Shown here one piece after another: positions 2,865 to 58,514 of a stretch of DNA of 64,000 nucleotides. The position numbers and the translations under genes were made by a program. The notes under the pieces were generated by a model that did no database searches, had not been told where the DNA came from, and saw only the letters and a program-made list of their open reading frames with translations. Source of the stretch: Mobula hypostoma (taxonomy: Eukaryota); NCBI RefSeq assembly GCF_963921235.1, contig NC_086097.1, forward strand, positions 170,874,001 to 170,938,000, read 5' to 3'. The stretch's first letter is position 1, and the number at the start of each line of letters is the position of its first letter.

Positions 2865-5800
2865 CACAGGAATCATTCATAATTAAAACATAAATTATGC
2901 ACAAAATTACAAGAAAGATCACAATAGAACATAAAAGACCATTTTAGTGCAAACTGATCAAAGTAGTGATTGTTTTGCTAAACTGTAGTGATCAAGGTTG
3001 TGCCTGTTGCCTCCTGAACTTGCTGGTGTAGGACTTCAGGCTTCTGTACCTCCTGCCCAATGGTAGCTGTGAGAAAATGGCATAGCCCAGATGGGTGATT
3101 ATCTTTGAAGATGGATGTTGCCTTCTTGATGCATTGCCTCCTGTAGATACTGTTGATGTGGGGAGGGATGTGTTGGTGTTATATTTGGCCAAGTCCACCA
3201 CCTTTCCCTTTGTCTGTCAAGTGATCTGTGGCTAGGACTAAGTTTGTTTGGGAAGTTTTAAGTTGGGCATGTCCAGAGGAATTGAAGCTTGACATTGTCA
3301 TGCTCAAAGACACAGATGTTTGTGCTTTACCATCTGTTTTGCTTTTGGAATATCAGATTTTTTTTCTCACTGCAGCGATGAAGTCTATAACAAGTTAACA
3401 AGTTTTTAGATGACAGATTACACGTTAATTTTCAGCACTGTCGCATATAGTTACTATCTCTTTTGTTGCTCACTGGTTTATCAGTTATAGCACAGCACAC
3501 TGGCTGATTTCCAGTTTGTCTATAAATCTATAAATAACTCATATTGTCGATGGCAGTCTGACCCTGCCTTTCCGTCAATAAACCCACATCCAAACACTGT
3601 ATCAAATCATCCAATTATAACTTGAAATGTTTATCATGAAATCTTAAGCACCTCAAAGGCTGAGGTATCCTGGAAACTAGTCTAGGACTTTGACACGCAT
3701 CTATGTTGACATTATACAGAATTTACAGTCAGCAGCAAGTCAATGGATCTTGGACTGATTTTAATGAAGGCTGTGCATTTAGATCTAGCAATCACATAGC
3801 AAGAATTTCCCCTATGCTTATAAATGTTGCTATCATGAATCATTTCAAAGAAACCATAGAATCCCCTTTATGTCTACACTTCTCACTGCCTCAGTAAAGC
3901 AGCCAGCATAATCAAAGTCTCCACCTGCCCCAGACTCTTCTCCTGCCTCCCATCCAGCAGAAGATACAAATACCTAAAAGTGCATACGACTAAGCTCTCG
4001 GAGAGTTTCTACCCCACTGTTATAGGATTATTGAATGGTTCTCTCGTACGATCAAGTGAACTCTAGACTTCACGGTCTACTTTAATATGATCTTGCATCT
4101 TACAGTTTACCTACACTGTCTTTCTCTCTAGCTGTTGCACATTTTCCTACGTTGTTGTTTTACTTTGTACTACTTCAATGCATTGTGTAGTGATTTGATC
4201 TGTGTGAAAAGTATGCAAGACAATCTTTTCACTGTATCTTGGTTCATGTGACAATAATAATAACCCAATAAATTAACCCAATAAACAGCTGTGATGTCAT
4301 CTATCTGAATAGCTGTCACTTCGAAAAATTCTCAAAGGCATCAGACCAGGAGGGAAAATAATGATGCAATTTTTAATTAAAATAGAGAATGCTGGAAATG
4401 GCAAGCCAGGAAGCATTTGTAAAGAGAGGAACAGGGTAAAGGTTTCAGGCTGATGAATTTTCCAGAAAATTCAAAGATTTTGGGCTTTTTCATTTCAGGA
4501 AGGGGGCCTGTTCCTGTGCTGTACCATTCTATTTTTTTGTTTTTATATCAGATTTCCAGCATCTGTAATATTTTACTTTATGAAAGTCAAAGGTCATCAA
4601 CTTAAACACAGCACTTCTTAAAGAAATAAAACCCTTTATTCTCTGAAACTTCTGCATGAATTATAATTCATACAGAAGTAGTTATTATATTTTGATGTTT
4701 ATTTAATAGGAAGACTTACTCCGCAGAGGACTTTAATGCTTGACATTACTGCTTGTCTTGCGGGGAGGGCGGTTGGAGGAGGTAGGTGGAGGCAGATATC
4801 CTCACAACTTTTAAGGAGCATCTAAAAACAAAATATTTTTGTCGCAGGACCAAGGACTGGTAAATGGGATCAGTGTAGACAGGTGCTTGAGCTTTAGTGT
4901 AGACATACTAGGACAAAAGGCCTTTTGAGGCATCTTCAAACAACAATACCTCAAGAAGGCAGCATCTACCAAGGGCCCCTATCACCCAGAAAATGCTCTC
5001 TTCTCATTGCTATCATCAAGGAGGAGGTGAACGAGTCTGAAGAGAAACACTCTACTGCTTTTTCCCTTCTGCCATCAGATTTCTGAATGGACAACGAACG
5101 CTACCATGAAGAGTGCGAGTGGAGGCCTGACCACTATTTCTTCCACATCCCTGTCCCTAAACCCTAACCTAACCCCCATCTCCACTTTCTGTCTCCAAAA
5201 CCATTCCTATGAGCTGAAAAAATAAGGAAGTCTGAGCCACGATCTCGACAGAGACCGCAGCTTGCTTCTCTCTTGTCAGGATAGCTAAAACTGAATACAA
5301 TATTCCAAATTCACCAATGTCTTGTACGCCTGCAGGACATCCCAGTTTCTTTACTCATGCTAAAAGACTACTTTCAAAGGACCATGCCCTTGTACTCCTA
5401 ATTCTGATAAAGGGTTACAGGTCTGAAACATTAACTGTTTCTCTTTGCACAGATTCCGCTTAACCCGCTAAGCTTTGGAGCATAATCTGTTCTCATATCA
5501 GTTCAGAAGGGACTTGCGGGTGAGCAAACTGCTAGTCTTCCCTGTGATGTCCTGTGAATAAGTAATAAAACAAGATGCGTTAATATATAAAAACCCACTG
5601 TTGTGAGGTACCAGCGGGGAACTGCATTTTGCAGCAACAACTTTCATTTGGGTTTGCCACCCAGTCAGGGTTTGTGCACAGGAATAATGAGTTGTTGCGG
5701 GTTGGATGGGTACATCCATCTGAAGGCAGTGGGCTCACAGATTAATGGCAAATAGAATTGCCTTACAAGGACGTCCTGTCAAATTAAGTATTATTTGCGT

Positions 5801-8800
5801 CAAGCTGGATGACAGAAGAATTGAAGCTGATCCCCTTGATTGGTTTTTATTTTGCCAAACTTTAAGTGCTGCCAAGTAAGAAAATAAAAGATGAATTCTG
5901 AAACCGTTAGTCGCCAAAGCAGCTTTTAAAGGCCTCCAGAACACAGGATTAATGTCTAACGTTTCCTAATGAAAGCACAGACTACATTAAGAAGCACATA
6001 TATTTGGATTAGATACTGAAAGCTTTTGGCAAGTAAGGCTTCTATTGTGTTTGATTTGTTGTCCTTTGCAGCAAGATGCTTTGCAGTTGAGTCATAGTTT
6101 GCTCATGCACTTTAGTTGCACTGTTCAACGTCACCTTGAGTGAAGCCGTTCTTCTGCTCTGAAGATCTTTCATGCAGAAATGATGTCAGCAACTTTCACC
6201 CTATCCTTGGCTTCACAGTAGTGTTACCCAATAATTGTGGCTGTCAAGCCATTTAAGGAGATAACAGAGCATTTGGCCAAAAGTTGGGCCAAACTGGTAG
6301 TCTTTTAGATGCATCTTAATGAGAGAAGGAGGAGAGTTTGTGGAGGGAATTGCAGAGCTTGAGGTCCAGGCCACAATAAACAGTGGAACAATTATGTTCA
6401 AGTGTCAGGTCAAATCAAATTGAGTTTATTGTCACGTGCACATGAATGGTGAGGTAAAGATACAATGAAAGCATGCTTGCAGCAATATAGAAGGATGCGG
6501 GCACAGACAACACTCAGAATATAAATTATATGTAAATTATACAGGACAGTTAAAGGAAAGAGATAAAAGGTCTGTACAAAAACAAGACCTTTTTGCAAAG
6601 TATACACAATCAAATTACAATCTACCATAGTCTATGCCAGTCCAATAAATGGTCCAAAAGGTTCAATTTCTGAGGTAGGGCTAGGGTTGTTCAGGTTGAT
6701 TCAAGAACCAGATGGTTGTAGGATACAAGCTGTTCTGAATCAGGTGGCGTGGGTCTTCAACTTGTATGCCCCCTGCCTGATGGTAGCAGTAAGAAGAGGA
6801 CATGACCCTGATGGTGGGGATCCTTGATGATAGATGCTGTATTCTTCCTATGGAGGCTGTCAATAGTATAGAGACATTGGAGAATAATAGGATCTATAAT
6901 TCCCTTCCTGAACCTTTGTCCTCCCTATATTGTTTCCTTTTTAAGCGGCGACATTTTTGTGTGACAGATTAGAAGGAGCTGAGGATGATTTTCCATTCTG
7001 AAGGCAGGGTCAGATATAGCCACGCTTTCCCTTTGCTGAATTCCCATCCGTGGTAAAGGTCGCAGATGGACATTGGCCAACTGATGACTTCCTGGAAAAT
7101 TTCTACCACAGGGCTCTTAATCCTTGGCCCAAATCCTACACTTTAGGAGAAGAACATTGTTTGGAAAGGGGCAGGGATGGAGAAAGGGGAAGATTACTAA
7201 AATCCACTCGACACTTGTGTTTCAAAAACAGGTTTGACTTTGAGAGCAGCTGGTGTACAGAAGTTGGTGAAGATTGCTCAGTGTTGTGGTACATCCAGAC
7301 TGCTAGGAGAAAGGAAGCTGTGTTTTTTAATCATCCGACAGCATAGAGTACTGTGGGAAGCAGATGGACTCTTTGCTAGGGAAAAGATGTTGCCCAGATG
7401 GCCAGACTGTGTGAATCTAGACCTTGTGTTGACTGACATGCAGCGAGCAATACTTGTAGCTGAAGTGAATACAAGGGCTGCAGCAGGATGTTGATGGAGC
7501 GAGGCGAGCTAATTGTCAGTCCAACTGTGCGAGGTTATTTTAAAGCCATGCAAACATTGGGAGTATTCCCCAAGCCACTAAAGACAAAACACACTAACAG
7601 CATCATCACCACATTGCTGGCTATAGAAGGTGGAACATACAACTTTAAAAGTTTGAGGAAACATCATCTGTAATCATCATATTACTTTAGACAACTGTGA
7701 GGGAAAATAAATATTAAATCAGCTTTGAGCAATTAATTTAATGTTCCTATAAATTTGCATTTTTTATACCAATTTTGGATCAAAAGGATTGAGAGGAAAC
7801 TCATTCTGTCTGAGGATAATCCAAGTTTTATTGACTGGAAGATTAGCCAGAGCATTTACTTATTCACCGTAGTTAATGTCGTACCCTTATTTAGGACACA
7901 CAGCAGAAATTGCCAGGGAACAAGCATTATATCAGTGTTGGGATATTTATTGAGAGGGAGCATGAGAGATGGGATGTATTGCAAGAACTAACACACGGGA
8001 CTGAGGATGAGCAACCCATGGTTACAAAGTAGTCCTGGTGGTAGGATGTACAGATGGAAGTGGAGGGGTGTTTCTCTGATCGGATATCTGTGATCAATAG
8101 TGTTCTGCAGTGTTGGTGCTGTCATTTTTTTTTGTATTATATATGATGCCAGAGGCCTTGGGCAAATTATCATTCCAGTTTAATTATCATTGAACCATAC
8201 ATATATATAGCCAGACAAAATAGTGTTCCTTTAGGGCCAAGGTGCAAAACACATTACCAACAGCACACGGCACACTACAGATAGTGCATAGCACAAACAG
8301 CACATATGGTTACAATTTCAGAAAACAAACAGTCACAATGAAGAAAAAAATACCAGTATCACTAAATCCCTGTGTGGAATAACTGGATAGGTGATAAATT
8401 GTCCTGGTCCAGCATGTTTTTTTTTCCACAGTCTCAACACTGGGCAGCAGCGAATGAACAATGGAGGGCAGCACTGTGTGAATACTGGAGAGCAGCCCTG
8501 ACCAAACACCTCAGGGCAGCAATGAGTGAACACCAGTGGGTAGCACCGTCTCAGCATCTCCACCCCAGGGCACTGTCATAGGTGACCGTGATGCTTCAGG
8601 CTAGGTCTAGTCCTCACCACAACTGAGGCAACGCAGCTCTCCCACCACCAAAATCGCCAACAAACCATTGAATCGGGCTTGTAATGTTCTATATTACCAA
8701 TGTCCAACAGCATCTTGTGATTACAATCAAAACATCCAGATCAACCACTCACACCTTGCACCGTCTCAGCCCAATGATACACAACAAGTCCAATCAACCA

Positions 8801-9944
8801 CACAACAATAGTATGCAAAAAGTCCAGCTCCATCACTATTAAGCAAATTGCTGACAGGATAGCCCTGCAGTGCTTGATGTTCTTAGTATCCAGTCGTGGC
8901 TTACAATCATAAAAGAACAGAGGAGAAGAAGAAAAGCACCCAGAATGCTGTGTCTAAATGTGCTGCCAATTTAGTGGATGAACTGGAAGATGATGTAAAA
9001 AGCAGAGACAACGGTTATTCTTGATCTCCAGACCAACATTTATTCCTCAAGTCAGTTGTCACCAATGCATCAGCTGATTATCAGACAATTGACTGTGGAA
9101 GCTTGCTCTGCACAAAATGGCTGTGTAGGTTTCTCTGACACAGTAGTTAGCTATTTGCAAAGTATAGCAAACTACGTGCTATGTCCATTTGTGAATTTGC
9201 CTTTACACAATTCACAAATTTGAGATACAGAATAAATCTGCTCTGCTGGAGTTTAAGTGAAAATGATAATTAAATAAACTGTTTCTTTTCAATTCGAATT
9301 TCTTGACACTTGCATGAATGATGTGGCTTCCTGTTATGGAAAATCGTGATGCCCAACATTTTCACAGAATGTCGACTCCTCTTCTTATTTCAGAGAGTAA
9401 CTATACTTCATTGGCTATCTGATCTTTAGGAGAAATTGAAAGGGACATCAGAGGCACTATAGAGAAGTAAACCTGTACATTTTATACCTGGGATTAGATA
9501 GCACAAACTGACGAAGTAAAGGTGGAACCAAGTTGAGGTTTTTAATGAGATCAAAATTTGGGTTCCATGGTGCATACTTCAGAACTGTATAATTGTTCTG
9601 CTTTTGTCAATTTTCCCAAGACCAATTTACTGTGGTAATAAGACAAAAAATACAGTTCAGCACTCACTCCTGACAGAGAATATCACTTTCTGGTAGGTAA
9701 AGATTTCAGGGATCTATTCAATTCATCTATTGGAAGAATAAGTGAGGATTTTATGGAAACATATAAAATCATAAAAGGGATAGATAAGATAGAGGCAGGA
9801 AAATTGTTTCCACTGGCAATTCAGACTAGAAGTTGGAGACATACCCTCAAAATTTAGTGGAATAGATTTAGGATCGAGATGAGGAGAAACTGCTTTCGCA
9901 GGGTAATGAATCTGTTGAATTCTCTGCCCAGCGAAGCAGTGGAG

Positions 9945-11480
9945 CTTACAACTGGAGTGACAAATGGATTTCAATGCAGATAAGTGTGAGGTGATGCATT
10001 TTGGAAAGTTAAACCAGTGTAGGGTTTATACTATGAATGGAGTGCAATGGAACTGAGGACTTAGGAGTAGAAATGTGTAATTCATTGGAAGTGGCATCAG
10101 AAATAAATAGGATAGTGAAAAGAGATGTTTTGTACACTGCTCGTTTCTACCTCCTACCCAAGATCCACAAATCTGACAATATGTGTAGGCTCATTGATTT
10201 TGCCTGCTCCTGCCCCACTGAACTTGTCTCCATTTTATCCTTTTTGTTTCAGACCCTTCCCATCTAGATCCATTACACTTCACGTGCTCTTGATCTCCTC
10301 AATAACTTTTAATTCCCTGGCCCTGTTTGCCTCATTTTCACTCTGGATGTCCTGTCTCAATACTCTTCTATTCCCCATCAAGAAGGCCTTAAGGCTCTCT
10401 GCTTATTTCTCAACAAATGACCCAACCAGTTCTCATCCACCATGAGCCTTCTCTAACTGGCAGAACTGGTCCTCACCCTCAGCAATTTCTCCTTTGGTTC
10501 CTCCCACTTTATCCAAACTCAAGGGGTTGCCATGAGCACCCACAAGGGCTCCAGCCATGCCTGTCTTTTGTTGGCTATGTCCCAATCTCAACACCTCATA
10601 TTCCATCAAAGTAGACTCTAACCTAATGGTATGAAAATTGATTTCTCCTTCCGATAATTTTCTCCCTCCCCTTTGCTCTTCTATTACCCACTCTGGCCTC
10701 TTACTTATTCTCCTCACCTGTCTATCACCTCTCCAAGGTGTCCTGTCCTTCTTCCCTTTCTCCCATGATCCATTCTCCTCTCCTATTAGATTGCTTCTTG
10801 GGTCTCGACCCAAAACGTTCATTGTTTATTCATTTACGTAGACGCTGCGGAACTGCTGAGTTCCGCCAGCATTTTGTATGTGTTGCTCTGGAGTTCCTGC
10901 ATCTGCAGAATCTGTTGTGTTTGGTGCACCGGCGTTCATCAGTCAGGGCATTGAGTGTTGAAGCTCGGATGCAACGTTGCAGCTGTGTAAGTTGTTGATG
11001 AGGCCGCACTTGGACTACTGTGTACAGCTTTAGTCATCCAGCTGTAGGAAAAATGTGGTTAAACTGGAGAAAAGGCAGAGATTGATGAGGATGTTGCCAG
11101 GACTAAAGGGCTTCAGTTATAGGGAGAGATTAGTCAGGCGAGGTCTTTTTCCTTGGAATATGAGAGAATGAGAGGTGACTTAATAGAAATGTTTAAAATT
11201 ACGAGAGGCATAATTAAGGTGGATGGTACGTCTGTTTCTTGAAGAAGGGGAATCAGAAACTGAGGAGCACTGATGTAGGGTGAGGGGGAAGAGATTGAAA
11301 GGGATCCTGAGAGGCAACGTTTTCATGTAGAGGTGTTGACTATATGGAAAGAACTGCTGGAGGAAGTGGTTGAGGCAGATACAATAGTATCACTTAAGGT
11401 GCACTTAGATAGGTATATGGCAGGGCAGAGTTTGGAGAGATATGGACCGAATGATTGTTCTGTGTCTCTATGATTTTAAA
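9945..11480 (+). mobile_element. Old CR1 LINE fragment, interrupted by a Penelope fragment
   Basis: CR1 RT-like DNA (gatttcaatgcagataagtgtgaggtgatgcattttgg) at 9950-10125 resumes at about 10925 and runs to a CR1 3' end. Confidence 0.75.
10132..10920 (+). mobile_element. Penelope-like element, internally deleted RT fragment plus terminus
   Basis: ARFYLLPKIHK (PLE RT motif) and degenerate downstream RT sequence, then a pyrimidine-rich region and the same terminal repeat seen at 11643-11780. Confidence 0.8.
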
Positions 11481-11742
11481 CATTGTCAAATGTGGCTAGC
11501 TTAATCTATATGGATAGCATGTTAAACATAGTTTTTCACTCCACTTCAGTATATATGGCAATCATAAACCAATATACCAACTTACCATTTTAGCATCTTT
11601 GTCAGCATTTGAGCAGTCAAGCCAAAACGGTCTGTTTCTATACGTAAACAACAGGAGTTCTGCAGATGCTGGAAATTCCAGCAACATACATCAAAGTTGC
11701 TGGTGAACGCAGCAGGCCAAGCAGCATTTGTAGGAAGAGGTG

Positions 11743-11780
11743 CAGTCGACGTTTCGGGCCGAGACCCTTTGTCAGGACTA
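11743..11780 (-). ncRNA. Minimal type I hammerhead ribozyme motif, one core substitution
   Basis: Minus strand UAGUC-CUGACAA-A-GGGU-CUCG-GCCC-GAAACGUC^GACUG; CUGANGA is changed to CUGACAA. Confidence 0.65.
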
Positions 11781-12903
11781 ACTGAAGGAAGAGCTAGTAA
11801 GACATTTGAGAGGGGGAGGGGGAGATCCAAAATGATAGAAGACAGGAAGGGGAGGAATGGAGCCAAGAGCTGGACAGGTGATTGGCAAAGGGGATATGAG
11901 AGGATCATGGGACAGGAGGCTCAGGGAGAAGGAAAAGGGCGGGGGGAAACACAAAGGATGGGCAAGGGGTATAGTCAGAGGGACAGAGGGAGAAAAAGGA
12001 GAGTGAGAGAAAGAATGTGTGTATATAAATAACGGATGGGATACGAGGGGGATGTGGGGCATTAGTGGAAGTTAGAGAAGGCAATGTTCATGCCATCAGG
12101 TTGGAGGCTACCCAGATGGAATATAAGGTGTTGTTCCTCCAACCTGAGTGTGGCCTCATCTTTACAGTAGAGGAGGCCGTGGATAGACATGTCAGAATAG
12201 GAATGGGATGTGAAATTAAAATGTGTGGCCACTGGGAGATCCTATTTTCTCTGGCGGACAGAGCGTAGATGTTCAGCAAAACGATCTCCCAGTCTGCGTT
12301 GGGTCTCACCAATATATAAAAGGCCACATCGGGAGCACCGGACACAGTATATCACCCCAGCCGACTCACAGGTGAAGTGTTGCCTCACCTGGAAGGACTG
12401 TCTGGGGCCCTGAATGGTGTTAAGGGAGGAAGTGTAAGGGCATGTGTAGCACTTGTTCCGCTTACAAGGATAAGTGCCAGGAGGGAGATTAATGGGGAGG
12501 GATGGGGTGACGAATGGACAAGGGAGTCGTGTAGGGAGCAATCCCTGCGGAAAGCAGAGGGGGGGAGGGAAAGATGTGCTTAGTGGTGGGATCCCGTTGG
12601 AGGCGGCGGAAGTTACGGAGAACAATATGTGGACCCGGAGGCTGGTGGGGTGGTAGGTGAGGACCAGGGGAACCCTATTCCCAGTGGGGTGGCGGGAGGA
12701 TGGAGTGAGAGCAGATGTGCGTGAAATGGGGGAGATGCGTTTGAGAGCAGAGTTGATGGTGGAGGAAGGGAAGCCCCTTTCTTTAAAAAGGACATCTCCC
12801 TCGTCCTGGAATGAAAAGCCCCCAACATATTATTCTCCGTAACTTCCGCCACCTCCAACGGGATCCCACCACTAAGGCCAAGCAGCATCTGTAGGAAGAG
12901 GTG

Positions 12904-12941
12904 CAGTCGACGTTTCAGGCCGAGACCCTTCGTCAGGACTA
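12904..12941 (-). ncRNA. Minimal type I hammerhead ribozyme motif, intact core
   Basis: Minus strand UAGUC-CUGACGA-A-GGGU-CUCG-GCCU-GAAACGUC^GACUG: stem I UAGUC/GACUG, CUGANGA, stem II, GAAA, palindromic ACGU in place of stem III, GUC cleavage triplet. Confidence 0.8.
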
Positions 12942-14901
12942 ACTGAAGGAAGAGTGAGTAAGGGATTTGAAAGTTGGAGGGGGAGGGGGAGATCCAATAT
13001 GATAGGAGAAGACAGGAGGGGGAGGGATAGAGCTGAGAGCTGGACAGGTGATAGGCAAAAGGGGATACGAGAGGATCATGGGACAGGAGGTCCGGGAAGA
13101 AAGACAAGGGGGGGGGGGTGACCCAGAGGATGGGCAAGGGGTATATTCAGAGGGACAGAGGGAGAAAAAGGAGAGTGAGAGAAAGAATGTGTGCATAAAA
13201 ATGAGTAACAGATGGGGTACGAGGGGGAGGTGGGGCCTTAGCGGAAGTTAGAGAAGTCGATGTTCATGCCATCAGGTTGGAGGCTACCCAGACGGAATAT
13301 AAGGTGTTGTTCCTCCAACCTGAGTGTGGCTTCATCTTTACAGTAGAGGAGGCCGTGGATAGACATGTCAGAATGGGAATGGGATGTGGAATTAAAATGT
13401 GTGGCCACTGGGAGATCCTATTTTCTCTGGCGGACAGAGCATAGATGTTCAGCAAAGTGGTCTCCCAGTCTGCGTCGGGTCTCGCCAATATATAAAAGGC
13501 CACATCGAGAGCACCGGACGCAGTATATCACCCCAGTCGACTCACAGGTGAAGTGATGCCTCACCTGGAAGGACTGTTTGGGGCCCTGAATGGTGGTAAG
13601 GGAGGAAGTGTAAGGGTATGTGTAGCACTTGTTCCACTTACATGGATAAGTGCCAGGAGGGAGATCAGTGGGGAGGGATGGGGGGGACGAATGGACAAGG
13701 GAGTTGTATAGGGAGCGATCCCTGTGGAATGCAGAGAGATGGGGGAGGGAAAGATGTGCTTAGTGGTGGGATCCCGTTGGAGGTGGCGGAAGTTACGGAG
13801 AATAATATGTTGGACCCGGAGGCTGGTGGGGTGGTAGGTGAGGACCAGGGGAACCCTATTCCTAGTGGGGTGGTGGGAGGATGGAGTGAGAGCAGATGTA
13901 CGTGAAATGGGGGAGATGCATTTAAGAGCAGAGTTGATAGTGGAGGAAGGGAAGCCCCTTTCTTTAAAAAAGGAAGACATCTCCCTTGTCCTAGAATGAA
14001 AAGCCTCATCCTGAGAGCAGATGCGGTGGAGACGGAGGAATTGCGAGAAGGGGATGGCGTTTTTGCAAGAGACAGGGTGAGAAGAGGAATAGTCCAGATA
14101 GCTGTGAGAGTCAGTAAGCTTATAGTAGACATCAGTGGATAAGCTGTCTCCAGAGACAGAGACAGAAAGATCTAGAAAGGGGAGGGAGGTGTCGGAAATG
14201 GACCAGGTAAACTTGAGGGCAGGGTGAATATATTATGACTCTATGAATCCCCATGAAAGAGAAAAGCTTCTGCAATTCTGGGGCTACCTTCTTACTTGCA
14301 TGGCTTTATGGAATATGTGTAATGAAATAGACAAATGTGTGTCCAATGATGATGTACAATAAGCTTAGAAACTTGGTTAAGATGAGGCTAAAGGCATTGG
14401 GGAATTGTCACCTGGGCAACTTTGATTGATACCTAAGTAGAAGAGTGGAGGGAAAATTACAAATAATAACATTATTATTAGTTCCAGCAGATGGAAATGT
14501 ATATCATGTCTGCAAAATTAAACCTCTAGGATTATGTTACTAGGGATGATTATGAAGAATATCTTATGGAGAATGAATGGGATTGGAACAGTTAGTTTAT
14601 TCTGCAATAAATGAAAAAGAAGCTGTAGATTCTGGAAATCTGAAATAAAAAGAACAGATGCTGGAGATGATGGAAACACTCAGTATGTGAGCCAGCATCC
14701 ATGGAGAAAGAAACAGTTATTGTTTCAGGTTGAAGACTTTTTGTCTGGACCAATGTTTTGTGTCTTATGATGACAATTTATTTGTGCCATAAGTGAATTA
14801 CTTCCTGATCTCTCTTTGTTTATCATTCTCAAGTTCAAGTTCAGTTTATTACAATTCAACCATACACTTATACTACCAACAAAACAATGTTCCCCTAGAC
14901 C

Positions 14902-16110
14902 TTCTTCTTCTTCGGTTGTCCATCGAAATCCAATGACAACATCCACTCCTTTAACGGTGAGATCTTTGATGACTATACAGTCCTATCCTGGACCCACAAG
15001 CTCTATTGCAGGTGGGACATGTATATGTAGTAGTGGTGGTGGTACTGATGGTCGTGGTGGCAACCATGGCTGCATTTCTCCTGGCTCTCTTCTGCTGTCT
15101 TCTGGTTGTTCTTTCCATCTCCAGAATACCAACACCGTCCCTACACAGCTGTCGCCAAGTGGTACGGTCAGCAGCAACATCCTCTGGGTCCTCGGGTCTG
15201 ATCTTGCACTTCCTTAAAGCATTCTTCATCTGATCCTTATAGCGCTTCTTTGGCCTTCCAGCTGAGTGTCGACCATGATGCAGCTGGCCGTATAACACTC
15301 TGTGGGGTAGCCGACGTGGGGCATCTTTATCACGTGCGCCAGCCACTGCGTCTGGCGCTGGGTGATCATGGCCTCAATACTCCTGCAGTTGGTCTTTACA
15401 AGTATTTCAGTGTGAGGCACCCGCTCACGCCAGGTAATTCCCAGGATGCGCTGGAGGCAGCTTATGTGGAAGCTCTCCAAGGACTTGATGTGATGGCTGT
15501 AGGTTACCCAAGCTTCACAGCTGTAAAGGAGGGTGGTGACACAGACCGCTTGGTATACGGTGACCTTTGTGGAGGGACGAAGGCTCCTGTTCTGAAAGAC
15601 TCTATGCCGAAGTCTCTCAAAGGTAACTGATGCCTGTTTAATGCGGCTCTTTATGTCATTGTTAATGCCGTTATCCTCAGAGAGAATGCTCCCAGATATT
15701 TGAAAGATGGCACTACCGTCAGCTTTTCATCACCAACGGTGAAGGCAGGTAGAGTGGTGGGACACTGGTACTCAATTGGCAAACTACTTCTGTCTTAGTG
15801 GTATTGACAGTCAGCTCCATCCTGCTGTACGCTCTCACCACCACAGCAAGGACAGTCTGAAGATCCTCCGGAGTATGGGCCACAAGAGCACAGCCGTCCG
15901 CATACTGCAGCTTCAGGACCCGCTCTCTACGGAGTTTTTTGGTTGCGTGGAGCCTCCTGATGTCAAAGAGGTTGCTATCTAATCTGACATCCAGTGCCAC
16001 ACCGCTGCTGTCTTCAATCCCGTTGTGGAGAAACTTGGTAATGCACAAGAGGAAGATGTTAAAGAGCACTGGCGCTAGCACACACCCCTGCCTCACCCTT
16101 GTATGTACAA
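14902..16110 (-). mobile_element. RTE-clade LINE, 5'-truncated
   Basis: RQGCVLAPVLFNIF, LQYADGCAL, LYGQL, C-terminal CPTCNRACGSRIGLYSHQRSH zinc finger and (GAA)n tail. Inserted into another repeat that resumes at about 16118. Confidence 0.9.
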
Positions 16111-16409
16111 GGAAGCATCAAGGTACACAACAGAGTACGTACATAAAACTTACACATATAACACATAAAGTAATATCAGCACTAGTAAATTAATAAATAA
16201 TAAGGTGCATTTATGACACAAGTTAATTGTCCATTTGTCCATTTCCTTCATCTCTCACTTTCTATCTCCGTGCATTTCCCTGAACTATCTTGCGCTCTCT
16301 GTCCCCTGCACACTGTTCATTTATCTACATTTCTTTCTTTCTCTGTCCATGTTGCCCTCAATATCTTTGCCTCTCTACCTCTTTGCCCTGGACTTGAACA
16401 GATAGGAAA

Positions 16410-19380: not shown

Positions 19381-19680
19381 AACATGAAAATAATTAAATA
19401 ACTATTGGCATGGTCTAAAATCACAAATAAATAATTCATTTGGAATTTTATCCATTTGGTGAGTTGTTAGATCAGCACAAAGAGCAAGTGTAACGCAGAT
19501 GGATGTGGAGAGAAGCACACTGCAAACACCTTGTGAATGTTTCTGCCATTTAATTATGTGATGGGATTTACACATCAGCACTGATGTGCCTTGTTCCCTG
19601 GGTAGTTGCCATTCTCTTAATAAGCCCACATTATGCTGAGTTAATAAATAAACATATGTATAATTTCCAATCATTCGCAG

Positions 19681-19934
19681 GAACTGGATTTTGAAAAAAA
19701 GTCAAGTTACAGCCTGAAGATTGAGGTCACCAATACACATGTCGACTCGCAGTTTGAGGCAATGGGACCCTTCGCCGACACAGCTACAGTGAAGCTCGTG
19801 GTTGAAGATGTGGATGAGCCTCCTGAGTTCAGCTCACTGCTGTACAAAATGTCGGTGTCCGAAGCAGCGAGGGTGGGCACGGCCATTGGCACTGTCTCTG
19901 CCCATGACCCAGACAAGGCCAACAATCCTGTAAG
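19681..19934 (+). CDS. CDH7: Type II cadherin (CDH7-like) internal exon, EC3/EC4, 254 bp
   Basis: Acceptor tcattcgcAG, donor TAAG|GTACGT. Translates ELDFEKKSSYSLKIEVTNTHVDSQFEAMGPFADTATVKLVVEDVDEPPEFSSLLYKMSVSEAARVGTAIGTVSAHDPDKANNPV(R), with cadherin motifs LDFE, VEDVDEPP and AHDPD. Confidence 0.93.
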
Positions 19935-20009
19935 GTACGTGCGCACAGTTCCTGGGAGGGAGGGACCGGCCCTTTGCTTTCATTCCTCCCTGAAAAATTT
20001 GCAAAGGTG

Positions 20010-21429: not shown

Positions 21430-21810
21430 ATACTCCATGGTCCATGGTCCTCTCCTAATAGATTCCTTCATCTTCAGCCCTTTACCTCTTTCATCTATCC
21501 CCTCCGAGCTTCTTGCTTCCTCCTCTCACCCTCTCGTTCAAACATCCTCCTCCATCATACCCCCTCCCCCACTCACCCACCTTCCTCCTCACTTGGTCTC
21601 ACCTATCGCCCGCCTGCTTGCTCTCCTTCCCCTCCCCACACCTCCTTACTCTAACTTCTGTCCCCTTCTTTTCCAGTCCTGATGAAGAGTCTCAGCCCGA
21701 AAAGTTGACTGTTTATTCCCCTCCGTAGATGCTGCCTTACCTGCTGAGTTCTTCCAGCATTTTGTGTGTGTGTTTTTTCTAAATTTTCTGTATTTACAGT
21801 CTCTCCAGTG
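21430..21810 (+). mobile_element. Penelope-like 3' terminal fragment
   Basis: Pyrimidine-rich region, then hammerhead-like motif, then gatgctgccttacctgctgagttcttccagcattttgtgtgt. Confidence 0.75.
21674..21711 (+). ncRNA. Degenerate hammerhead motif, sense to the cadherin
   Basis: CAGUC-CUGAUGA-A-GAGU-CUCA-GCCC-GAAAAGUU-GACUG: perfect stem I, CUGAUGA and GAAA, but a stem II mismatch and loss of the ACGU palindrome. Confidence 0.55.
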
Positions 21811-26369: not shown

Positions 26370-26955
26370 CCAGATTCAATTCGACTTCCTAGTCATATAC
26401 TGTCATGTCAGTCCATGGCCTCCTCCACTACCACAATGATTCCAAACTCAGGTTGGGGGAGCAACACCTCACATATCCTCCAACTTCAAGGCATGAACTT
26501 CAATCTCTCTAACTTCCAGGAATTACTCCCCCCTCCCCTCTTCTCTCTTTATCAGTTCTCCATTCTGGTTACCCTCTCACCCTTGCACTTCTCCTCAACT
26601 CCCTATGGTTCCCCTCCTCATTGGCATAATTCTATGGTCCACTGTCCTCTCATATTAGATTTCTTCTTCTTCGGCCCTTTACCTCTTCCCTCCATAACCT
26701 CCATACTTCTTATTTCATCCTGCCTCAACCACCCCTCCACCTTCCCCCTCACATGGTCTCACCTACCTCCTGCCAGCTTGTACCCTACCCCCACCTTCTT
26801 TTCCTGGTTTCTTCACCATCATTTTCAATCCTGATTAAGGTCTTGGCCTGAAACATCATCTGTTAATTCCACTCCGTTGATGTTGCCTGACCCACTGAGT
26901 TCCGGCAGGAGATAGTTTATTTCTCCAGATTCCAGCACCTACATTCTCTTGTTTT
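26370..26955 (+). mobile_element. Penelope-like 3' fragment, old
   Basis: Resembles the reverse complement of 12060-12230, followed by the terminus; decayed motif aatcctgattaaggtcttggcctgaaacatc. Confidence 0.75.
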
Positions 26956-29017: not shown

Positions 29018-30147
29018 TAGAAACATAGAAACATAGAAAATAGGTGCGGGAGTAGGCCATTCGGCCTTTCGAGCCTGCACCGCCATTCAGTATGATCATG
29101 GCTGATCATCCAACTCAGAACCCTGTACCTGCCTTCTCTCCATACCCCCTGATCTCTTTAGCCACAAGAGCCATATCTAACTCCCTCTTAAATATAGCCA
29201 ATGAACTGACCTCAACTGTTTGCTGTGGCAGAGAATTCCACAGATTCACAACTCTTTGTGTGAAGAAGTTTTTCCTCATCTCGGTCCTAAAATGCTTCTC
29301 CTTTATCCTCAGACTGTGATCCCTCATTCTGGACTTCCCCAACATCGGGAACAATCTTCCTACATCTAGCCTGTCCAATCCCTTTAGAATTTTATACGTT
29401 TCAATAAGATCCCCCCTCAATCTTCTAAATTCCAGAGAGTATAAGCCTAGTCGATCCAGTCTTTCATCATATGAAAGTCCTGCCATCCCAGGAATCAATC
29501 TGGTGAACCTTCTTTGTACTCCCTCTATGGCAAGAATGTCTTTCCTCAGATTAGGGGACCAAAACTGCACACAGTACTCCAGGTGTGGTCTCACCAAGGC
29601 CTTGTACAAGTGCAGTAGTACCTCCCTGCTCCTGTACTTGAATCCTCTTGCTATAAATGCCAGCATACCATTCGCCTTTTTCACTGCCTGCTGTACCTGC
29701 ATGCCCACTTTCAATGACTGGTGTACAATGACACCCAGGTCTCGTTGCACCTCCCCTTTTCCTAATCGGCCACCATTCAGATGATAATCTGTTTTCCTGT
29801 TCTTGCCACCAAAGTGGATAACCTCACATTTATCCACATTAAATTGTATCTGCCATGAATTTGCCCACCCACCTACCCTATCCAAGTCACCCTGCGTCCT
29901 CTTAGCATCCTCCTCCTAGCTAACACTGCCACCCAGCTTCGTGTCATCCGCAAACTTGGAGATGCTGCATTTAATTCCCTCGTCTAAGTCATTAATATAT
30001 ATTGTATACAACTGGGGTCCCAGCACTGAGCCTTGCGGTACCCCACTAGTCACTGCCTGCCATTCTGAAAAGGTCCCATTTATTTCCACTCTTTGCTTCC
30101 TGTCTGCCAACCAATTCTATATCCACATCAATACCATACCCCCAATA
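29018..30147 (-). mobile_element. Young CR1 LINE, 5'-truncated
   Basis: ORFs 29916..30110 ([19 protein letters not shown]) and 29115..29885 (256 aa ORF2 C-terminus); (TTTCTATG)n tail; very similar to 53171-54294. Confidence 0.95.
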
Positions 30148-30520: not shown

Positions 30521-31463
30521 CTGTCTTGTCTCCCTTTCTCTTCACCATTTACACCTCGGACTTCAACTACTACACAGAGTCTTGTCATCTTCAGAAGTTT
30601 TCGGATGACTCTGCCATAGTCGGATGCATCAGCAAGGGAGATGAGGCTGAGTACAGGGCTACGGTAGGAAACTTTGTCACATGGTGTCAGCAGAATTATC
30701 TACAGCTTAGTGTGAGAAAGACTAAGGAGCTGGTGGTAGACCTGAGGACAGCTAAGGTACCGGTGACCCCTGTTTCCATCCAGGGGGTCAGTGTGGACAT
30801 GGTGGAGGATTACAAGTACCTGGGGATATGAATTGACAATAAACTGGACTGGTCAAAGAACACTGCGGCTGTCTACAAGAAGGATCAGAGCCGTCTCTAT
30901 TTCCTGAGGAGACTGAGGTCCTTTAACACCTACTGGACGATGCTGAGGATGTTCTACGAGTCTGTGGTGGCCATTGCTATCATGTTTGCTGTTGTGTGCT
31001 GGGGCAGCAGGCTGATGGTAGCAGACACCAACAGAATCAACAAACTCATTCGTAAGGCTAGTGATGTTGTGGGGATGGAACTGGACTCTCTGACGGTGGT
31101 GTCTGAAAAGAGGGTGCTGTCCAAGTTGCGTGCTATCTTGAACAATGTCTCCCATCCACTACATAATGTACTGGGTGGGCACAGGAGTACATTCAGCCAG
31201 AGACTCATTCCACCGAGATGCAACACAGAGCATCATAGGAAGACATTCCTGCCTGTGGCCATCAAACTTTACAACTCTTCCCTTGGAGGGTCAGACACCC
31301 TGAGCCAATAGGCTGGTCCTGGACTTATTTCATAATTTACTGGCATAATTTACATATTACTATTTCACTATTTATGGTTTTTATTACTGTTTAATTATTT
31401 ATGGTGCAACTGTAATGAAAACCAATTTCCCCTGGAATCAATAAAGTATGACTATGACTATGA
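30521..31463 (+). mobile_element. Rex1/Babar-type LINE, 5'-truncated
   Basis: VLSPFLFTIYTSD, KFSDDSAIVG, KTKELVVD, YKYLG and FLPVAIKLYN; AATAAA followed by a (TATGAC)n tail; ACTATGA at both ends. Confidence 0.9.
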
Positions 31464-37273: not shown

Positions 37274-37449
37274 CACATACAATATGTTGGGGGAACTCAG
37301 CAGTTTAGGCAGCATCAATGGAGGGAAGTAAACGGTAGGCATTTTGGGGCGAGACCCCCTATAGATGCTGCCTGACCTGCTGAGTTCCTCCAGCATTTCG
37401 TGCATGTTGATTGAGATTTCCAGTGTCTGCAGAATTTCTTGTGTCAGGG
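37274..37449. mobile_element. Penelope-type fold-back mini-element inserted in a CR1 tail
   Basis: gaactcagcag...gcagcatc is inverted relative to gatgctgcc...ctgctgagttc; ATTAATTTA direct repeats at 37265-37273 and 37450-37458. Confidence 0.65.
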
Positions 37450-39896: not shown

Positions 39897-42640
39897 TTAG
39901 AATCAGAATCAGGTTTATTATCGCCGACATTTGTTAACTTAGCAGCAGCAGTTCAATGCATAATCTAGCAGAGAGAGAAAAAAATAATAAATTAAATAAA
40001 AATAATAATAAATAAACATGTAAATCAATTACATATATTGAATAGATTTTTAAAAAAACATGCAAAAACAGAAATACTGTATATTTAAAAAAAATTGAGG
40101 TAGTGTCCAAAGATTCAATGTCCATTTAGGAATAGGATGGCAGAGGGGAAGAAGCTGTACCTGAATCGCTGAGTGTGTGTCTTCAGGTTTCTGTACCTCC
40201 TACCTGATGGTAACAGTGAGAAAAGGGCATGCCCTGGGTGCTGGATGTCCTTAATAATGGACGCTGCCTTTCTGAGACACCGCTCCCTGAAGATGTCCTG
40301 GGTACTTTGTAAGTTAGTGCCCAAGATGGAGCTGACTAGATTTACAACCTTCTGCAGCTTCTTTCGGTCTTGTGCAATTAGCCCCTCCATACCAGACAGT
40401 GATGCATTCTGTCAGAATGCTCTCCATGGTACAACTATAGAAGTTTTTGAGTGTATTTATTGACATGCCGAATCTCTTCAAACTCCAAATAAAGTATAGC
40501 TGCTGTCTTGCCTTCTTTATAACTACATCGATATGTTGGGACCAGGTTAGATCCTCAGAGATCTTGACTCCCAGGAACTTGAAACTGCTCACTCTCTTCA
40601 ATTCTGATCCCTCTATGAGGATTGGCATGTGCTCCTTCGTCTTACCCTTCCTGAAGTCCACAATCAGCTCTTTTGTGTTACTGACGTTGAGTGCCAGGTT
40701 GTTGCTGCAACACCACTCCACTAGTTGGCATATCTCACTCCTGTACGCCCTATCGTCACCACCTGAGATTCTACCAACAATGGTTGTCTCATCAGCAAAT
40801 TTGTAGATGGTATTTGAGCTATGCCTAGCCACACAGTCATGTGCATATAGAGAGTAGAGCAGTGGGCTAAGCAAACACCCCTGAGGTGCGCCAGTGTTGA
40901 ATTTGTCAGCGAAGAGGATATGTTATCACCAATCCGCACAGATTGTGGTCTTCCGGTTTGGAAGTCAAGGATCCAATTACACAAGGAGGTACAGAGGCCT
41001 AGATTCTGCAACTTCTCAATCAGGATTGTGGGAATGATGGTATTAAATGCTGAGCTATAGTTGTTGAACAGTCCTGACGTGTTGTCCAAGTGGTCTAAAG
41101 CTGTGTGGAGAGCCATTGAGATTGTCTCTGCCATTGACCTATTGTGGCAATAGGCAAATTGCAATAGGTCCAGGTCCTTGCTGAAGCAGGTGTTCGGTCT
41201 AGTCATGAACAAACTCTCAAAGCATTTAATCACTGTCGATGTGAGTGCTACCGGGCGATAGTCATGCAGACCCTACCAGAGTTGCCATGCATCTGATGTC
41301 ACCTACAACCCTGTTTGAAATTGTCTCCTCACCCTTGAAATAACCCTCTGAAAATCATATCTGGTTTTCTGGTACAGGCCTGGGTTGCCAGATTTGAATG
41401 TCACAGATCTAGCCTTCAGAAGACGACATACCTCCTGGTTCATCCATGGCTTTTGGTTTGGGAATGTACAGTAAGTCTTTGTGGCAGACACACATCCACA
41501 CAGGTTTTAAAGAAGTCAGTATGCAGCATACTCATCCAGGTTTGAAGATGAATCCCTGAATACAGTTCAGTCCACAGATTCAAAGCAGTCCTGTAGGCAC
41601 TCCTGTACTTCCCTTGTCCATACCTTCTTGGTCCTCACTGCTGGTGCCGCAGTCTTCAGTCTTTGCCTGTACTCAGGGAGTAAAAGTACAGCCAGGTGAT
41701 TGGACTTCCCGTAGTGAAGGCATGGAAAAGCACGATAGGCATTCTTGATGGTGGTGTAGCAATGGTCCAGTGTGTTATTTCCTCTGGTATTGCAAGTGAT
41801 CTGTTGATGGTAATTGCTTAGTGATTTTTTTTCTGACTGGCCTGGTTAAAATCTCCCAAAACGATGGTGAAGGTGTTAGGGTGCGCTGTTTCGTGCATGT
41901 TGACCCCATTGCTCAAGTCACTTAAAGCCTGTTTGACATTGGCCTGAGGTGGAATGTAAACTGCTACCAAAATGACCCCAGAGAACTACCGTGGTAGGTA
42001 AAGAGGACGGCACTTTACTGCTAGATATTCCAGGTCTGGTGAGCAGAATTGGGACAGCACTGATATATTTGTGCACCAAGAAGAGTTGATCATGAGGCAT
42101 ATTCCTCCACCTCTGCTTTTGAGAGACTCTATAGATCTATCCTGACGGTGTATAGTAAACCTGTCGATCTGAATCGTTGCATCCGGTATGGAAGGGGTTA
42201 ACCAGGATTCCATTAAACACAGGACACACGCGGTCCTAATGTCCCTCTAATTCAGCACCCTAGCTTTAAGATCATCGATTTTATCCACCAAATACTGCAC
42301 ATTCGCCAGTAAGATCATTGGTATAGGGAGTTTAAAACCCCATTTCCTTAAACACACTTGTAATCCCGATCTACACGCGCCTCCTCCAAAGTGTCCTCTG
42401 GGGGCACTTCCCACCACAATTAGTGTTTTTTCCCATTGGCTTTAAGCAGCGATAATTCATTTAAACGCATTAAGACATCTTTGTTAACTGTACTGACCTT
42501 GGAAGCAGTTGTGCTTTTTAGCTGTCTCAGGCTGAAATGGGAATATTTAATTGTATCGATTGAGAGTACTGCTGCTACTCGAGTCGTGCCTAGGCGCCCC
42601 GGAGAATGTGCAAGCTGCACATTGAGAGCACTGGAGTTCA
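39897..42640 (-). mobile_element. Rex1/Babar LINE, near full-length and degenerate (EN plus RT)
   Basis: ESWLTP...SRGGGICLMINSSWC (APE), [34 protein letters not shown] and SFFPSAI; (TCTGAT)n tail. Confidence 0.92.
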
Positions 42641-43893: not shown

Positions 43894-43919
43894 CTAATCT
43901 TTCCTTGTCCTTTGAACAG

Positions 43920-44041
43920 AGAATCCTGCACAAGTTGGAAGGGGATCGGTTCACATTAGCTTGGTGGATGTCAATGACAACGTCCCTGAATTTCCAATGG
44001 AGTACGAAACATTTGTTTGTGAAAATACCAACCATGGCAAG
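43920..44041 (+). CDS. CDH7: CDH7-like internal exon, EC4/EC5 linker, 122 bp
   Basis: Branch-like ACTAAT at 43893-43898, pyrimidine tract, acceptor aacAG, donor AAG|GTAAGG. Translates (Q)NPAQVGRGSVHISLVDVNDNVPEFPMEYETFVCENTNHGK, with the DxNDN Ca2+ motif. Confidence 0.93.
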
Positions 44042-44454
44042 GTAAGGAAATTCATTCCCAATCATATAATATTCTTTGGCAGAAGAAGCTGATCTGGCTT
44101 TCCCCATTTCTGATCTCTCCTCCCTATAATCAGCTGATGTAGAGGACCAGCCTTGCTGATTAAATCTCATCCTCAACAATGCAGCGGTAAAAGCTATAAT
44201 AGTTTTCCTATGTAGCGGTTCTTAAACATATTATACAAGAACATTTAGAGACAATTCTTTAAAAGCTATTACCATAGAGTAAATAACTAAGTAATAAATC
44301 CATAAAAAATAAAGACTAACAATAGCTTAAAACACAAATAATAACATAGAATAAAATAATAAATAATAAAGTACCTGTTTTTTCTCTTTCCATGCTCATC
44401 GAATGGTCTACAATACTTGCTGAATATTTGAAGTGTTGTGCTCAGTTTTGTTTA

Positions 44455-52448: not shown

Positions 52449-54293
52449 AGCTTTTATAGATATGTGAAAAGAAAAAGATTGGTTAAGACAAATGTAGGTC
52501 CCTTACGGTCAGAAACAAGTGAATTGATCATGGGGAACAAGGACATGGCAGACCAATTGAATAACTACTTTGGTTCTGTCTTCACTAAGGAGGACATAAA
52601 TAATCTTTCGGAAATAGTAGGGGACTGAGGGTCTAGTGAGATGGAGGAACTGAGAGAAGTACATGTTAGTAGGGAAGTGGTGTTAGGTAAATTGAAGGGA
52701 TTAAAAGCAGATAAATCCCCAGGGCCAGATGGTCTGCAACCCAGAGTGCTTAAGGAAGTAGCCCAAGAAATAGTGGATGCATCAGTGATAATTTTTCAAA
52801 ACTCTTTAGATTCTGGATTAGTTCCTGAGGATTGGAGGGTGGCTAATGTAACCCCACTTTTTAAAAAAGGAGGGAGAGAGAAACCAGGGAATTATAGACT
52901 GGTAAGCCTGACATCAGTGGTGGGGAAAATGCTAAAGTCAGTGATCAAAGATGTGATAACAGCACATTTGGAAAGCAGTGAAATCATCGGACAAAGTCAG
53001 CATGGATTTGTGAAAGGAAAATCATGTCTGACGAATCTCACAGAATTTTTTGAGGATGTAACTAGTAGAGTGGATAGGGGAGAACCAGTGGATGTGGTAT
53101 ATTTGGATTTTCAAAAGGCTTTTGACAAGGTCCCACACAGGAGATTAGTGTGCAAACTTAAAGCACACGGTATTGGGGGTATGGTATTGATGTGGATAGA
53201 GAATTGGTTGGCAGACAGGAAGCAAAGAGTGGGAATAAACGGGACCTTTTCAGAATGGCAGGCAGTGACTAGTGGGGTACCGCAAGGCTCAGTGCTGGGA
53301 CCCCAGTTGTTTACAATATATATTAATGACTTAGATGAGGGAATTAAATGCAGCATCTCCAAGCTTGCGGATGACACGAAACTAGGCGGCAGTGTTAGCT
53401 GTGAGGAGGATGCTAAGAGAATGCAGGGTGACTTGGATAGGTTAGGTGAGTAGGCAAATTCATGGCAGATGCAATTTAATGTGGATAAATGTGAGGTTAT
53501 CCACTTTGGTGGCAAGAACAGCAAAAACAGATTATTATCTGAATGGTGGCCGATTAGGAAAAGGGAAGGTGCAACGAGACCTGGGTGTCATTATACACCA
53601 GTCATTGAAAGTGGGCATGCAGGTACAGCAGGCAGTGAAAAAGATGAATGGTATGCTGGCATTCATTGCAAGAGGATTCGAGTACAGGAGCAGGGAGGTA
53701 CTACTGCAGTTGTACAAGGCCTTGGTGAGACCACACCTGGAGTATTGTGTGCAGTTTTGGTCCCCTAATCTGAGGAAAGACATTCTTGCCATAGAGGGAG
53801 TACAAAGAAGTTTCACCAGATTGATTCCTGGGATGGCAGGACTTTCATACCATGAAAGACTGGATCAACTAGGCTTATACTCTCTGGAATTTAGAAGATT
53901 GAGGGGGGATCTTATTGAAACGTATAAAATCCTAAAGGGATTGGACAGGCTAGATGTAGGAAGACTGTTCCCGATGTTGGGGAAGTCCAGAACGAGGGAT
54001 CACAGTTTGAGGATATAGGGGAAGCCTTTTAGGACTGAGATGAGGAAAAACTTCTTCACACAGAGAGCAGTGAATCTGCGGAATTGTCTGCCACAGGAAA
54101 CAGCTGAGGCCAGTTCATTGGCTATATTTAAGAGGGAGTTAGATATGGCCCTTGTGGCTAAAGGGATCGGGGGTATGGGGAGAAGGCAGGTATAGGGTTC
54201 TGAGTTGGATGATCAGCCATGATCATACTGAATGGCGGTGCAGGCTCGAAGGGCCGAATGGCCTACTCCTGCACCTATTTTCTATGTTTCTAT
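52449..54293 (+). mobile_element. Young CR1 LINE, 5'-truncated, inserted in the old CR1 3' end
   Basis: ORFs 52641..53453 (270 aa RT) and 53446..54018; (TTTCTATG)n tail; GTTAGA at 52443-52448 and 54294-54299. Confidence 0.95.
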
Positions 54294-57639: not shown

Positions 57640-57771
57640 AGTAAACATGAGGAATTCTGCAGATGCTGGAAATTCAAGCAACACACATCAAAGTTGCTGG
57701 TGAATGCAGAGGCCAGGCAGCATCTCTAGGAAGAGGTACAGTCGACGTTTTGGCCCGAGACCCTTCGTCAG
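57640..57771 (-). mobile_element. Short Penelope terminus ending at a hammerhead core
   Basis: Very similar to 11643-11775. Minus strand CUGACGA-A-GGGUCUCGGGCC-AAAACGUC-GACUG at 57739-57771; GAAA is mutated and the 5' arm of stem I is missing. Confidence 0.8.
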
Positions 57772-58396
57772 TCCGTACAGATTGTTTCATTACAACAGCA
57801 TACTGAGGTCATACAAGGTAAGCAATAACAGAATGCTGTATAAAATGTTAGAAATACTGAGAAAATGCAGTGCAGGCAGGCAATAAGGTGCCAAGGCCGT
57901 GATGAAGTAGATTGTGAAGTCAAGAATCATCTGTATTAGGTGATTGGTCACTAGGCTTATAACAGTGGGATAGAGCTTTCCTTGGGTCTTCTATTAATGG
58001 CACCATGCCATCAATTCCATATTCTGTATAGTATTAAGGTAGTATATTGTCAGTAATGAGCCACTGTATGATTATAATTGATGTCACTGCAACAAAGGAA
58101 GTAGTGAATAGCAGGAGTGAGGACTGGATGGAAGATGGTCGGAATTGTATTTCTCAACCATTGAGATGTACTTAGTAAATTGTAAGACTCAGTACGTATT
58201 GTGTGAGGAAAGGCTGAATGACTGTTTCCTCATTCTATGATAGCCAGCATCTTTATCTTACATTATTCGTGGCTCTTCACAAGTTTTTGGAAGTGTACAT
58301 TTGCCTAACGAAGATATATTGACCTTCTGAATTTGACCTGGTATGTCGAATTGTTTCAAGTCCAAAATCAATTCTGATCTTTTACTGTAATTACAG

Positions 58397-58514
58397 ATAA
58401 TACAGAAGATCAGTGCTGTGGACAGGGATAAACCACTCAGCGGTCACCACTTTTATTTCTCCCTTGCTCCTGGGGCTGGTAATAACCTTAACTTCACGGT
58501 GCAAGATAACAGAG
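58397..58514 (+). CDS. CDH7: CDH7-like internal exon, EC5, 118 bp
   Basis: Acceptor ttacAG, donor G|GTATTT. Translates [39 protein letters not shown]; phase 0 start follows the previous exon. Confidence 0.92.

Follow-up and report, generated by a model that had tools for sequence, protein, structure and literature searches.

The window, a 64,000-nucleotide stretch of Mobula hypostoma DNA (NC_086097.1, forward strand), holds part of a type II cadherin gene; the complete gene spans about 180 kb, and its last exon lies about 7400 nt past the end of the window. In an intron of about 20 kb, flanked on both sides by plus-strand exons (the previous one at window position -548, about 550 nt before the window, and the next near 19680), two truncated copies of a Penelope-like element (PLE), here called A and B, lie antisense to the gene, which bears out the position claimed in an earlier sequence-only reading. 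For one exon, cadherin-8, -7 and -11 (type II) are among the closest solved chains; we take the host gene to resemble cadherin-7, a choice that this comparison does not settle. Among the matches listed, a genome-wide cadherin search returned long-exon genes only, and the neighbouring DNA showed the intron. The window also carries putative fragments of other retroelements with reverse transcriptase (RT), and further copies of the present and older related Penelope families, most of them with decayed hammerheads (Table 1).

Copy A contains the end of RT, a CX4CX2C linker, GIY-YIG, a pyrimidine-rich 3′ untranslated region (UTR) and a hammerhead motif, and is broken by one frameshift and a TAG stop (13420-13418); its 3′ end lies 33 nt past its own cut site, short of the normal ends of the family. 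Copy B, in which the CX4CX2C linker is also present, likewise has an interrupted frame, with frameshifts and the same TAG stop at 12244-12242. The first reading missed both the end of A at 12875 and the 55-nt inverted piece between the copies. It described the stretch between the motifs as a GIY-YIG-coding unit: a GIY-YIG stretch is there (PF01541, E 0.001, below the curated cut-off), but calling it coding overstates the case because the frameshifts and the TAG stop break it.

Table 1. Features of the window. The u coordinates of the element take the cut site as their origin, which places the next cut at u3513/3514.
Feature	Position	Strand	Description
Hammerhead motif A	12941-12904	minus	minimal type I, intact core, predicted cut 12909/12908
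Hammerhead motif B	11780-11743	minus	minimal type I, core G8>A, predicted cut 11748/11747
Copy A	12875..14228	minus	5′-truncated PLE, u2193-3547, young subfamily
Inverted piece, 55 nt	12822..12876	plus	u2608-2662 of the same element; 2-nt overlap with the end of A
Copy B	11646..12820	minus	5′-truncated, u2416-3615, long tail end, older subfamily
Conserved 3′ stretch and tail of copy B	11646..11742	minus	
5′ edge of hammerhead A, initiator-like	12937..12942	minus	u3481-3486 region; start of short family copies
Next cadherin exon	19680..19935	plus	
Further cadherin exons	43916-44089, 58391-58525		
Further copies, present and older related Penelope families	2669-2860, 10135-10918, 21675-21771, 26375-26864, 37358-37439, 57643-57771		most with decayed hammerheads
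Other RT-bearing retroelement fragments	6-1146, 14951-16117, 29115-30118, 30832-31459, 40314-41272, 52629-54018		labels tentative

Two minimal type I hammerhead motifs

Re-reading recovered both minus-strand motifs, with an intact core in A and the core CUGACAA in B, as first read. Motif A combines a stem I of UAGUC/GACUG, the core CUGACGA, a 4-bp stem II (GGGU/GCCU) with a 4-nt loop and a G10.1-U11.1 wobble, one unpaired A, and then GAAA and ACGU; its C17 is 12909. It has the elements of a minimal type I hammerhead (CUGANGA, GAAA and UH, stems I and II, and a palindromic 15.1-16.1), the kind that had been said to need a dimer and that is published for PLEs. The ribozyme class is indeed already known, since hammerheads in Penelope repeats have been described. 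Motif B differs from motif A at two positions, G8>A (11770) and a C for U at position 11.1 (11756); its GUC cut site is intact, with C17 at 11748. Re-measuring the distance between the two predicted cuts again gave 1161 nt. The C3-G8 pair is not intact in both partners, as motif B pairs C3 with A8; a published A8 hammerhead variant is accompanied by U3 (PMC4209133).

Exact matches to a 34-nt version of the motif number 22,524 and 22,615, at least 45,139 in all, in the 3.48-Gb genome, against 0 and 0 for its reversed control; the abundance of the motif is therefore not due to chance. Single-strand folding z-scores of the motifs (-0.61 and -0.48) are not significant, and being so unremarkable they are not diagnostic by themselves. 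An Rfam scan gave no hammerhead model match at either motif and three chance-level hits, which is uninformative because the motif lacks stem III.

The motifs closely resemble the minimal type I hammerheads of PLEs (Cervera and De la Pena 2014, PMC4209133), in which stem III is likewise only the palindrome 15.1-16.1, a base between 9 and 10.1 is unpaired, stem I has 5 bp, the motif sits in a terminal repeat and most genomic copies are solitary. They differ in that stem II has 4 bp here and 7-8 bp in Schistosoma, and in copy number, at least 45,139 exact matches here versus 4,000-9,000 for coelacanth and Xenopus (PMC4209133). In most young-family copies (124/156), unlike the hammerheads described there, G10.1-U11.1 (u3505) replaces the usual G-C pair. 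We found no cartilaginous fish among the hosts in the searched text of that paper, supplements apart.

Across four local groups of copies the 38-nt motif is nearly constant, whereas its flanks, the UTR on the 5′ side and the linker on the 3′ side, differ. Position N7 varies, the stem changes are one-sided (I.5 C-G to U-G, II.1 G-C to G-U) with no two-sided change standing out, and the tail is conserved as well (217/288 aligned segments scored). From these alignments the motif looks maintained in source elements, a claim of which covariation is no part. An intact core is kept in 21/27 whole motifs. The G8>A change was found in 2/55, 3/27 and 3/156 copies (three overlapping samples), and in motif B it is, on sequence grounds, plain CpG decay. 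G8 is the proposed general acid (PMC6155905), and G8C abolishes cleavage by a PLE hammerhead, a reaction that needs the element's protein (PMC11167929); that hammerhead is dispensable for insertion in vitro (PMC11167929). A literature search on the effect of G8>A itself found no paper, and by analogy with G8C and from the C3-G8 pair we predict that it impairs the motif B core. In an older group, 'O2', of a related family, 12/19 copies read CUGCUGA (A6>C); this is an amplified lineage whose core is likely inactive.

An abundant element family and a composite locus

The full unit of the element is seen in a natural tandem (L031:9200-L032:2870 in G000:C63), in which the hammerheads lie 3513 nt apart. 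A 706-aa open frame at L031 contains RT, the CX4CX2C linker and GIY-YIG (RVT_1 E 1.7e-05 and GIY-YIG E 6.5e-04, both below the curated cut-offs) and has 980 homologues, most of them, among the matches listed, with PF00078/PF26215; the nearest named proteins are from Mobula hypostoma (85-93%), Hypanus sabinus (77-79%) and sharks (61-70%). The long N-terminal coding region after the hammerhead gave no Pfam match in the 230 aa scanned. Copies A and B are 96% and 91% identical to this unit, and the assignment of the locus to Penelope is upheld.

As in EN+ PLEs, RT precedes GIY-YIG in one frame at L031 (broken in the window copies), insertions are tandem or partial-tandem and inverted, and the tail has 30-40 nt. 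A linker of the form CX2-5CxxC, which Neptune has in common with Nematis, separates RT from the C-terminal EN in L031 and copy B. On these features, as described in PMC8557442, the element is an EN+ PLE, probably of the Neptune clade. It further resembles the Neptune clade in the CxxC between GIY and YIG, 5′ truncation, inverted 5′ copies, a tail extension of about 35 nt and a repeat hammerhead; unlike the Neptune description, target duplications of about 13 nt are visible at several inverted insertions here (PMC8557442). The 3′ ends of the family are bimodal, at about u3580 and about u3615, which is reminiscent of PAc, the green anole Poseidon element (Frangieh et al. 2024, PMC11167929), where two reverse-transcription starts give two 3′ ends. 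In PAc, a member of the Poseidon clade, the ORF begins within the hammerhead, whereas the open frame here is downstream of the hammerhead in the tandem unit (PMC11167929). A literature search exclusive of Repbase, Dfam, subscription papers and supplements found no account of the present family in rays or sharks.

Copies A and B differ in age and subfamily. Rare (<=5%) substitutions amount to 9/1355 (0.66%) in copy A and 27/1200 (2.25%) in copy B, a roughly threefold difference that points to B as the earlier insertion, and B carries older-subfamily alleles. At non-CpG sites the two are 6.43% apart; their nearest copies are 1.5% (to A) and 5.4% (to B) away. In a tree of 65 arms, A and B stand far apart, and the arms of single inverted insertions (L052, L075, L086) are sisters. 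Inverted insertions (L052, L074, L075, L086, L043) have flanking duplications of about 13-14 nt and usually one long-tail and one short end. Target duplications of about 13 nt, scored by eye, are present at 5/6 inverted insertions examined; none was found flanking A and B as a whole.

These data bear on whether A and B could be halves of one partial-tandem insertion, in which template switching between two RNAs would have produced both copies, and the inverted piece with them, at one time. In favour of this, PLE insertions typically include partial tandems and adjacent inverted copies (PMC8557442), the 55-nt piece matches the family majority throughout (0 differences), as a young copy would, and a rare stop is common to A and B. 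Such an origin is nevertheless unlikely: the excess of rare substitutions in B points to an older insertion, A ends at u3547 and not at the usual u3580 or u3615, the pair lacks a target duplication, and the downstream copy is not full length. The shared stop has another possible source. The TAG-making dinucleotide change is in both A and B and its G>A half is in 0/79 other copies, which suggests local gene conversion; with this stop and two shared 3′ alleles (u3531, u3541), A and B are not fully independent in sequence.

The joins between the pieces are similarly informative. For the join of A to the inverted piece, the window was the sole match among the best 40 of 186 candidates. The junction of the inverted piece with B has exactly two genomic matches, window 12821 and L052:1530; around it (-55 to +57, about 110 nt) the window and L052 differ by one substitution and one 4-nt gap, against an overall identity of 92%, and from this near-identity we infer repair templated from another locus. 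Another junction is shared by L059:3235 and L075:4834, within a 200-nt identical tract in otherwise 97% identical copies; two further inversion junctions tested were each unique. Each junction pair (L059/L075; window/L052) comprises exactly two loci with different flanks and near-identical tracts of 110-200 nt. Judging by these tracts, the sharing of inversion junctions looks like the product of ectopic gene conversion from one palindromic insertion to another. We also considered that the junction shared with L052 might mark an inverted subfamily that propagates itself, and rejected this, as B and L052 are 6.4% apart and not sisters, and the two other junctions tested are unique.

We consider it highly probable that the motifs are the 3′-repeat hammerheads of two separate truncated, frame-broken copies of an abundant PLE, likely joined by a one-off insertion and DNA repair, and that no doubly cut 1161-nt RNA is to be expected from them. 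Copy B would have inserted first and copy A later, beside it; PLEs tend to land inside an older copy or next to one (PMC6765202). A break between A and B may then have been repaired with about 110 nt copied from L052 or a similar locus, spanning its inversion junction, and rejoined to copy A through a 2-nt microhomology. A and B would later have exchanged a short tract by gene conversion. This putative repair history is read from a single shared junction, for which coincidence is possible (rough estimate 1-2%). The locus itself is ordinary, one among tens of thousands of decaying copies.

The sequence-only reading had proposed that the two motifs are set apart so as to release a unit-length, possibly circularisable RNA, and this proposal finds no support. 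The natural tandem unit measures 3513 nt, so the 1161 nt between the cuts do not make up a unit; the two copies differ in age and go back to separate insertions; and a search for their join matched only the window among the best 40 of 186 candidates. An 864-kb contiguous sample (C1, C2, C9, C18; L148-L167 and the window, L198-L257) contains 44 motifs, and its consecutive same-strand pairs less than 6 kb apart have scattered spacings of 663, 1161 (the present locus), 2185, 2979, 3335, 3887, 4079, 4665 and 4881 nt. The 1161-nt spacing was not repeated among these nine or among 14 in 78 further loci, and there was no preferred size. The 1141-nt same-strand spacing at L107 was rejected as a parallel, as the partner there belongs to an older family (85%) and the DNA between the two is not from the element. 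Two hammerheads found together commonly lie head-to-head on opposite strands; the 864 kb, window included, hold 10 such pairs among 52 young arms.

Predicted cleavage at the locus

Minimal PLE hammerheads are thought to act as dimers and cleave weakly in vitro (PMC4209133; PMC6765202). In a double hammerhead the two palindromes would pair, with the GAAA of one copy opposite the UC of the other, and stem I would form between the 5′ strand of one copy and the 3′ strand of the other. Given the geometry of the merged stems III in a 2D structure built in this way, each core should cut its partner's site: the intact core of motif A could cut at B, and the core of motif B (C3 facing A8) would have to cut A. 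Because the core required for the A site carries G8>A, only the downstream B site is predicted to be cut in cis, which would leave the 1161-nt piece still attached at its 5′ side and yield no doubly cut, ligatable RNA. The idea that the tandem supplies a dimer partner in cis is thus retained for one predicted cut and abandoned for release by two. A two-hammerhead transcript is plausible here, since partial tandems are normal for PLEs and published work places the promoter in the upstream repeat (PMC2377424); an antisense transcript driven by A's repeat, if any, would be cuttable in cis at B's site only. Trans dimers with other copies are possible. In the active family, a tandem transcript with two hammerheads 3.5 kb apart would fold as a double hammerhead, probably aided by the protein of the element.

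Could the cis-paired hammerheads nonetheless cut both sites and free a 1161-nt RNA that is ligated to a circle, as a retrozyme-like unit? The motifs lie on the same strand, the GUC site and stem I halves of each are intact, the model has been proposed for PLEs (PMC4209133), circles have been shown for tandem retrozymes (PMC7229834), and any of tens of thousands of copies could in principle cut the site in trans. Against this, the core needed for the A site is mutant, and the arrangement has not spread, its join being unrepeated among the best 40 of 186 candidates and its spacing in the loci sampled. Forcing the double hammerhead on a 1296-nt transcript costs 26.3 kcal/mol in a 2D model, and the isolated active dimer reaches -14.1 versus -29.5 for the best cofold, although the 26.3 kcal/mol argument is weak because the model ignores tertiary contacts and protein help. 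In published work, 8/9 tested Xenopus dimers did not cleave (bioRxiv 10.64898/2026.07.22.740005), and reads of the anole element neither start nor stop at the cut site (PMC11167929). Release of a circle from this locus is therefore very improbable.

Comparison with non-LTR retrozymes (PMC7229834; bioRxiv 10.64898/2026.07.22.740005) leads in the same direction. They also have two same-strand type I hammerheads and are PLE-derived, but their tandem units are non-coding, measure 51-972 nt, carry complete motifs one unit after the next and recur as families; the present locus is a single join of two coding-region relics, 1161 nt, with one core mutant. It departs from the published definition in its motifs, one core being mutant (bioRxiv 10.64898/2026.07.22.740005), and in that no family of such units was found, the join of A occurring only here among the best 40 of 186 candidates. 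The locus works like a published PLE repeat hammerhead and is not a retrozyme on these two counts.

The intronic position, on the strand opposite to the cadherin gene, together with the ability of PLE repeats to drive neighbouring transcription (PMC2377424), might suggest that the locus was co-opted as an antisense regulator in which the single cut ends the antisense transcript. However, the 20-nt tail motif has at least 94,123 copies in 3.48 Gb, so one is expected per 37 kb or less; the 264 kb around the cadherin gene hold many copies, and the core of motif B has decayed as neutral copies do. We regard co-option as having almost no likelihood.

Family 5′ ends at the hammerhead edge

The replication mode of PLEs and the cutting of their hammerheads in vivo are open questions (PMC4209133, PMC11167929), and the 5′ ends of young copies are relevant to both. 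Among 51 young arms of the 864-kb sample (the 52 minus one reaching the reference edge), 12 start on the 5′ strand of stem I (u3481-3486) and 2 at the cut site; compared with a uniform spread of 26 ends in u3400-3560, this pile-up has p 4e-11, with paired arms not being independent. The upstream flanks of the short copies are unrelated. Solo copies consisting of hammerhead plus tail, 100-135 nt long, are common.

The start site reads TTAGTCC, and CCAGTCC in an older group. The initiator consensus is YYANWYY, which both versions fit, and the match would be consistent with a promoter role. We tentatively suggest that the transcript may start at the first hammerhead bases, that reverse transcription from the leader tail site may run off the RNA end after 100-135 nt, and that such cDNAs may integrate as solo copies, about a quarter of the family. 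If this is true, the genome records the transcription start, and uncut RNA is the template in vivo; for PAc, too, uncut RNA appears to be the template (PMC11167929). Alternatively, the enzyme may stall at the folded ribozyme. A spliced leader, suggested by the pyrimidine tract and AG that lie ahead of stem I, was rejected, as the short copies have no common upstream exon. A literature search exclusive of repeat databases and supplements found no description of such a 5′-end pile-up. The family is useful in this respect, being young, with at least 94,000 copies and sharp end distributions, and the pile-up, located at the ribozyme edge rather than the cut site, makes both replication and cutting in vivo testable. 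Elsewhere in the genome, at G000:C66:44503875-44504205, a piece of the element's coding region has given rise to a 28-nt tandem array.
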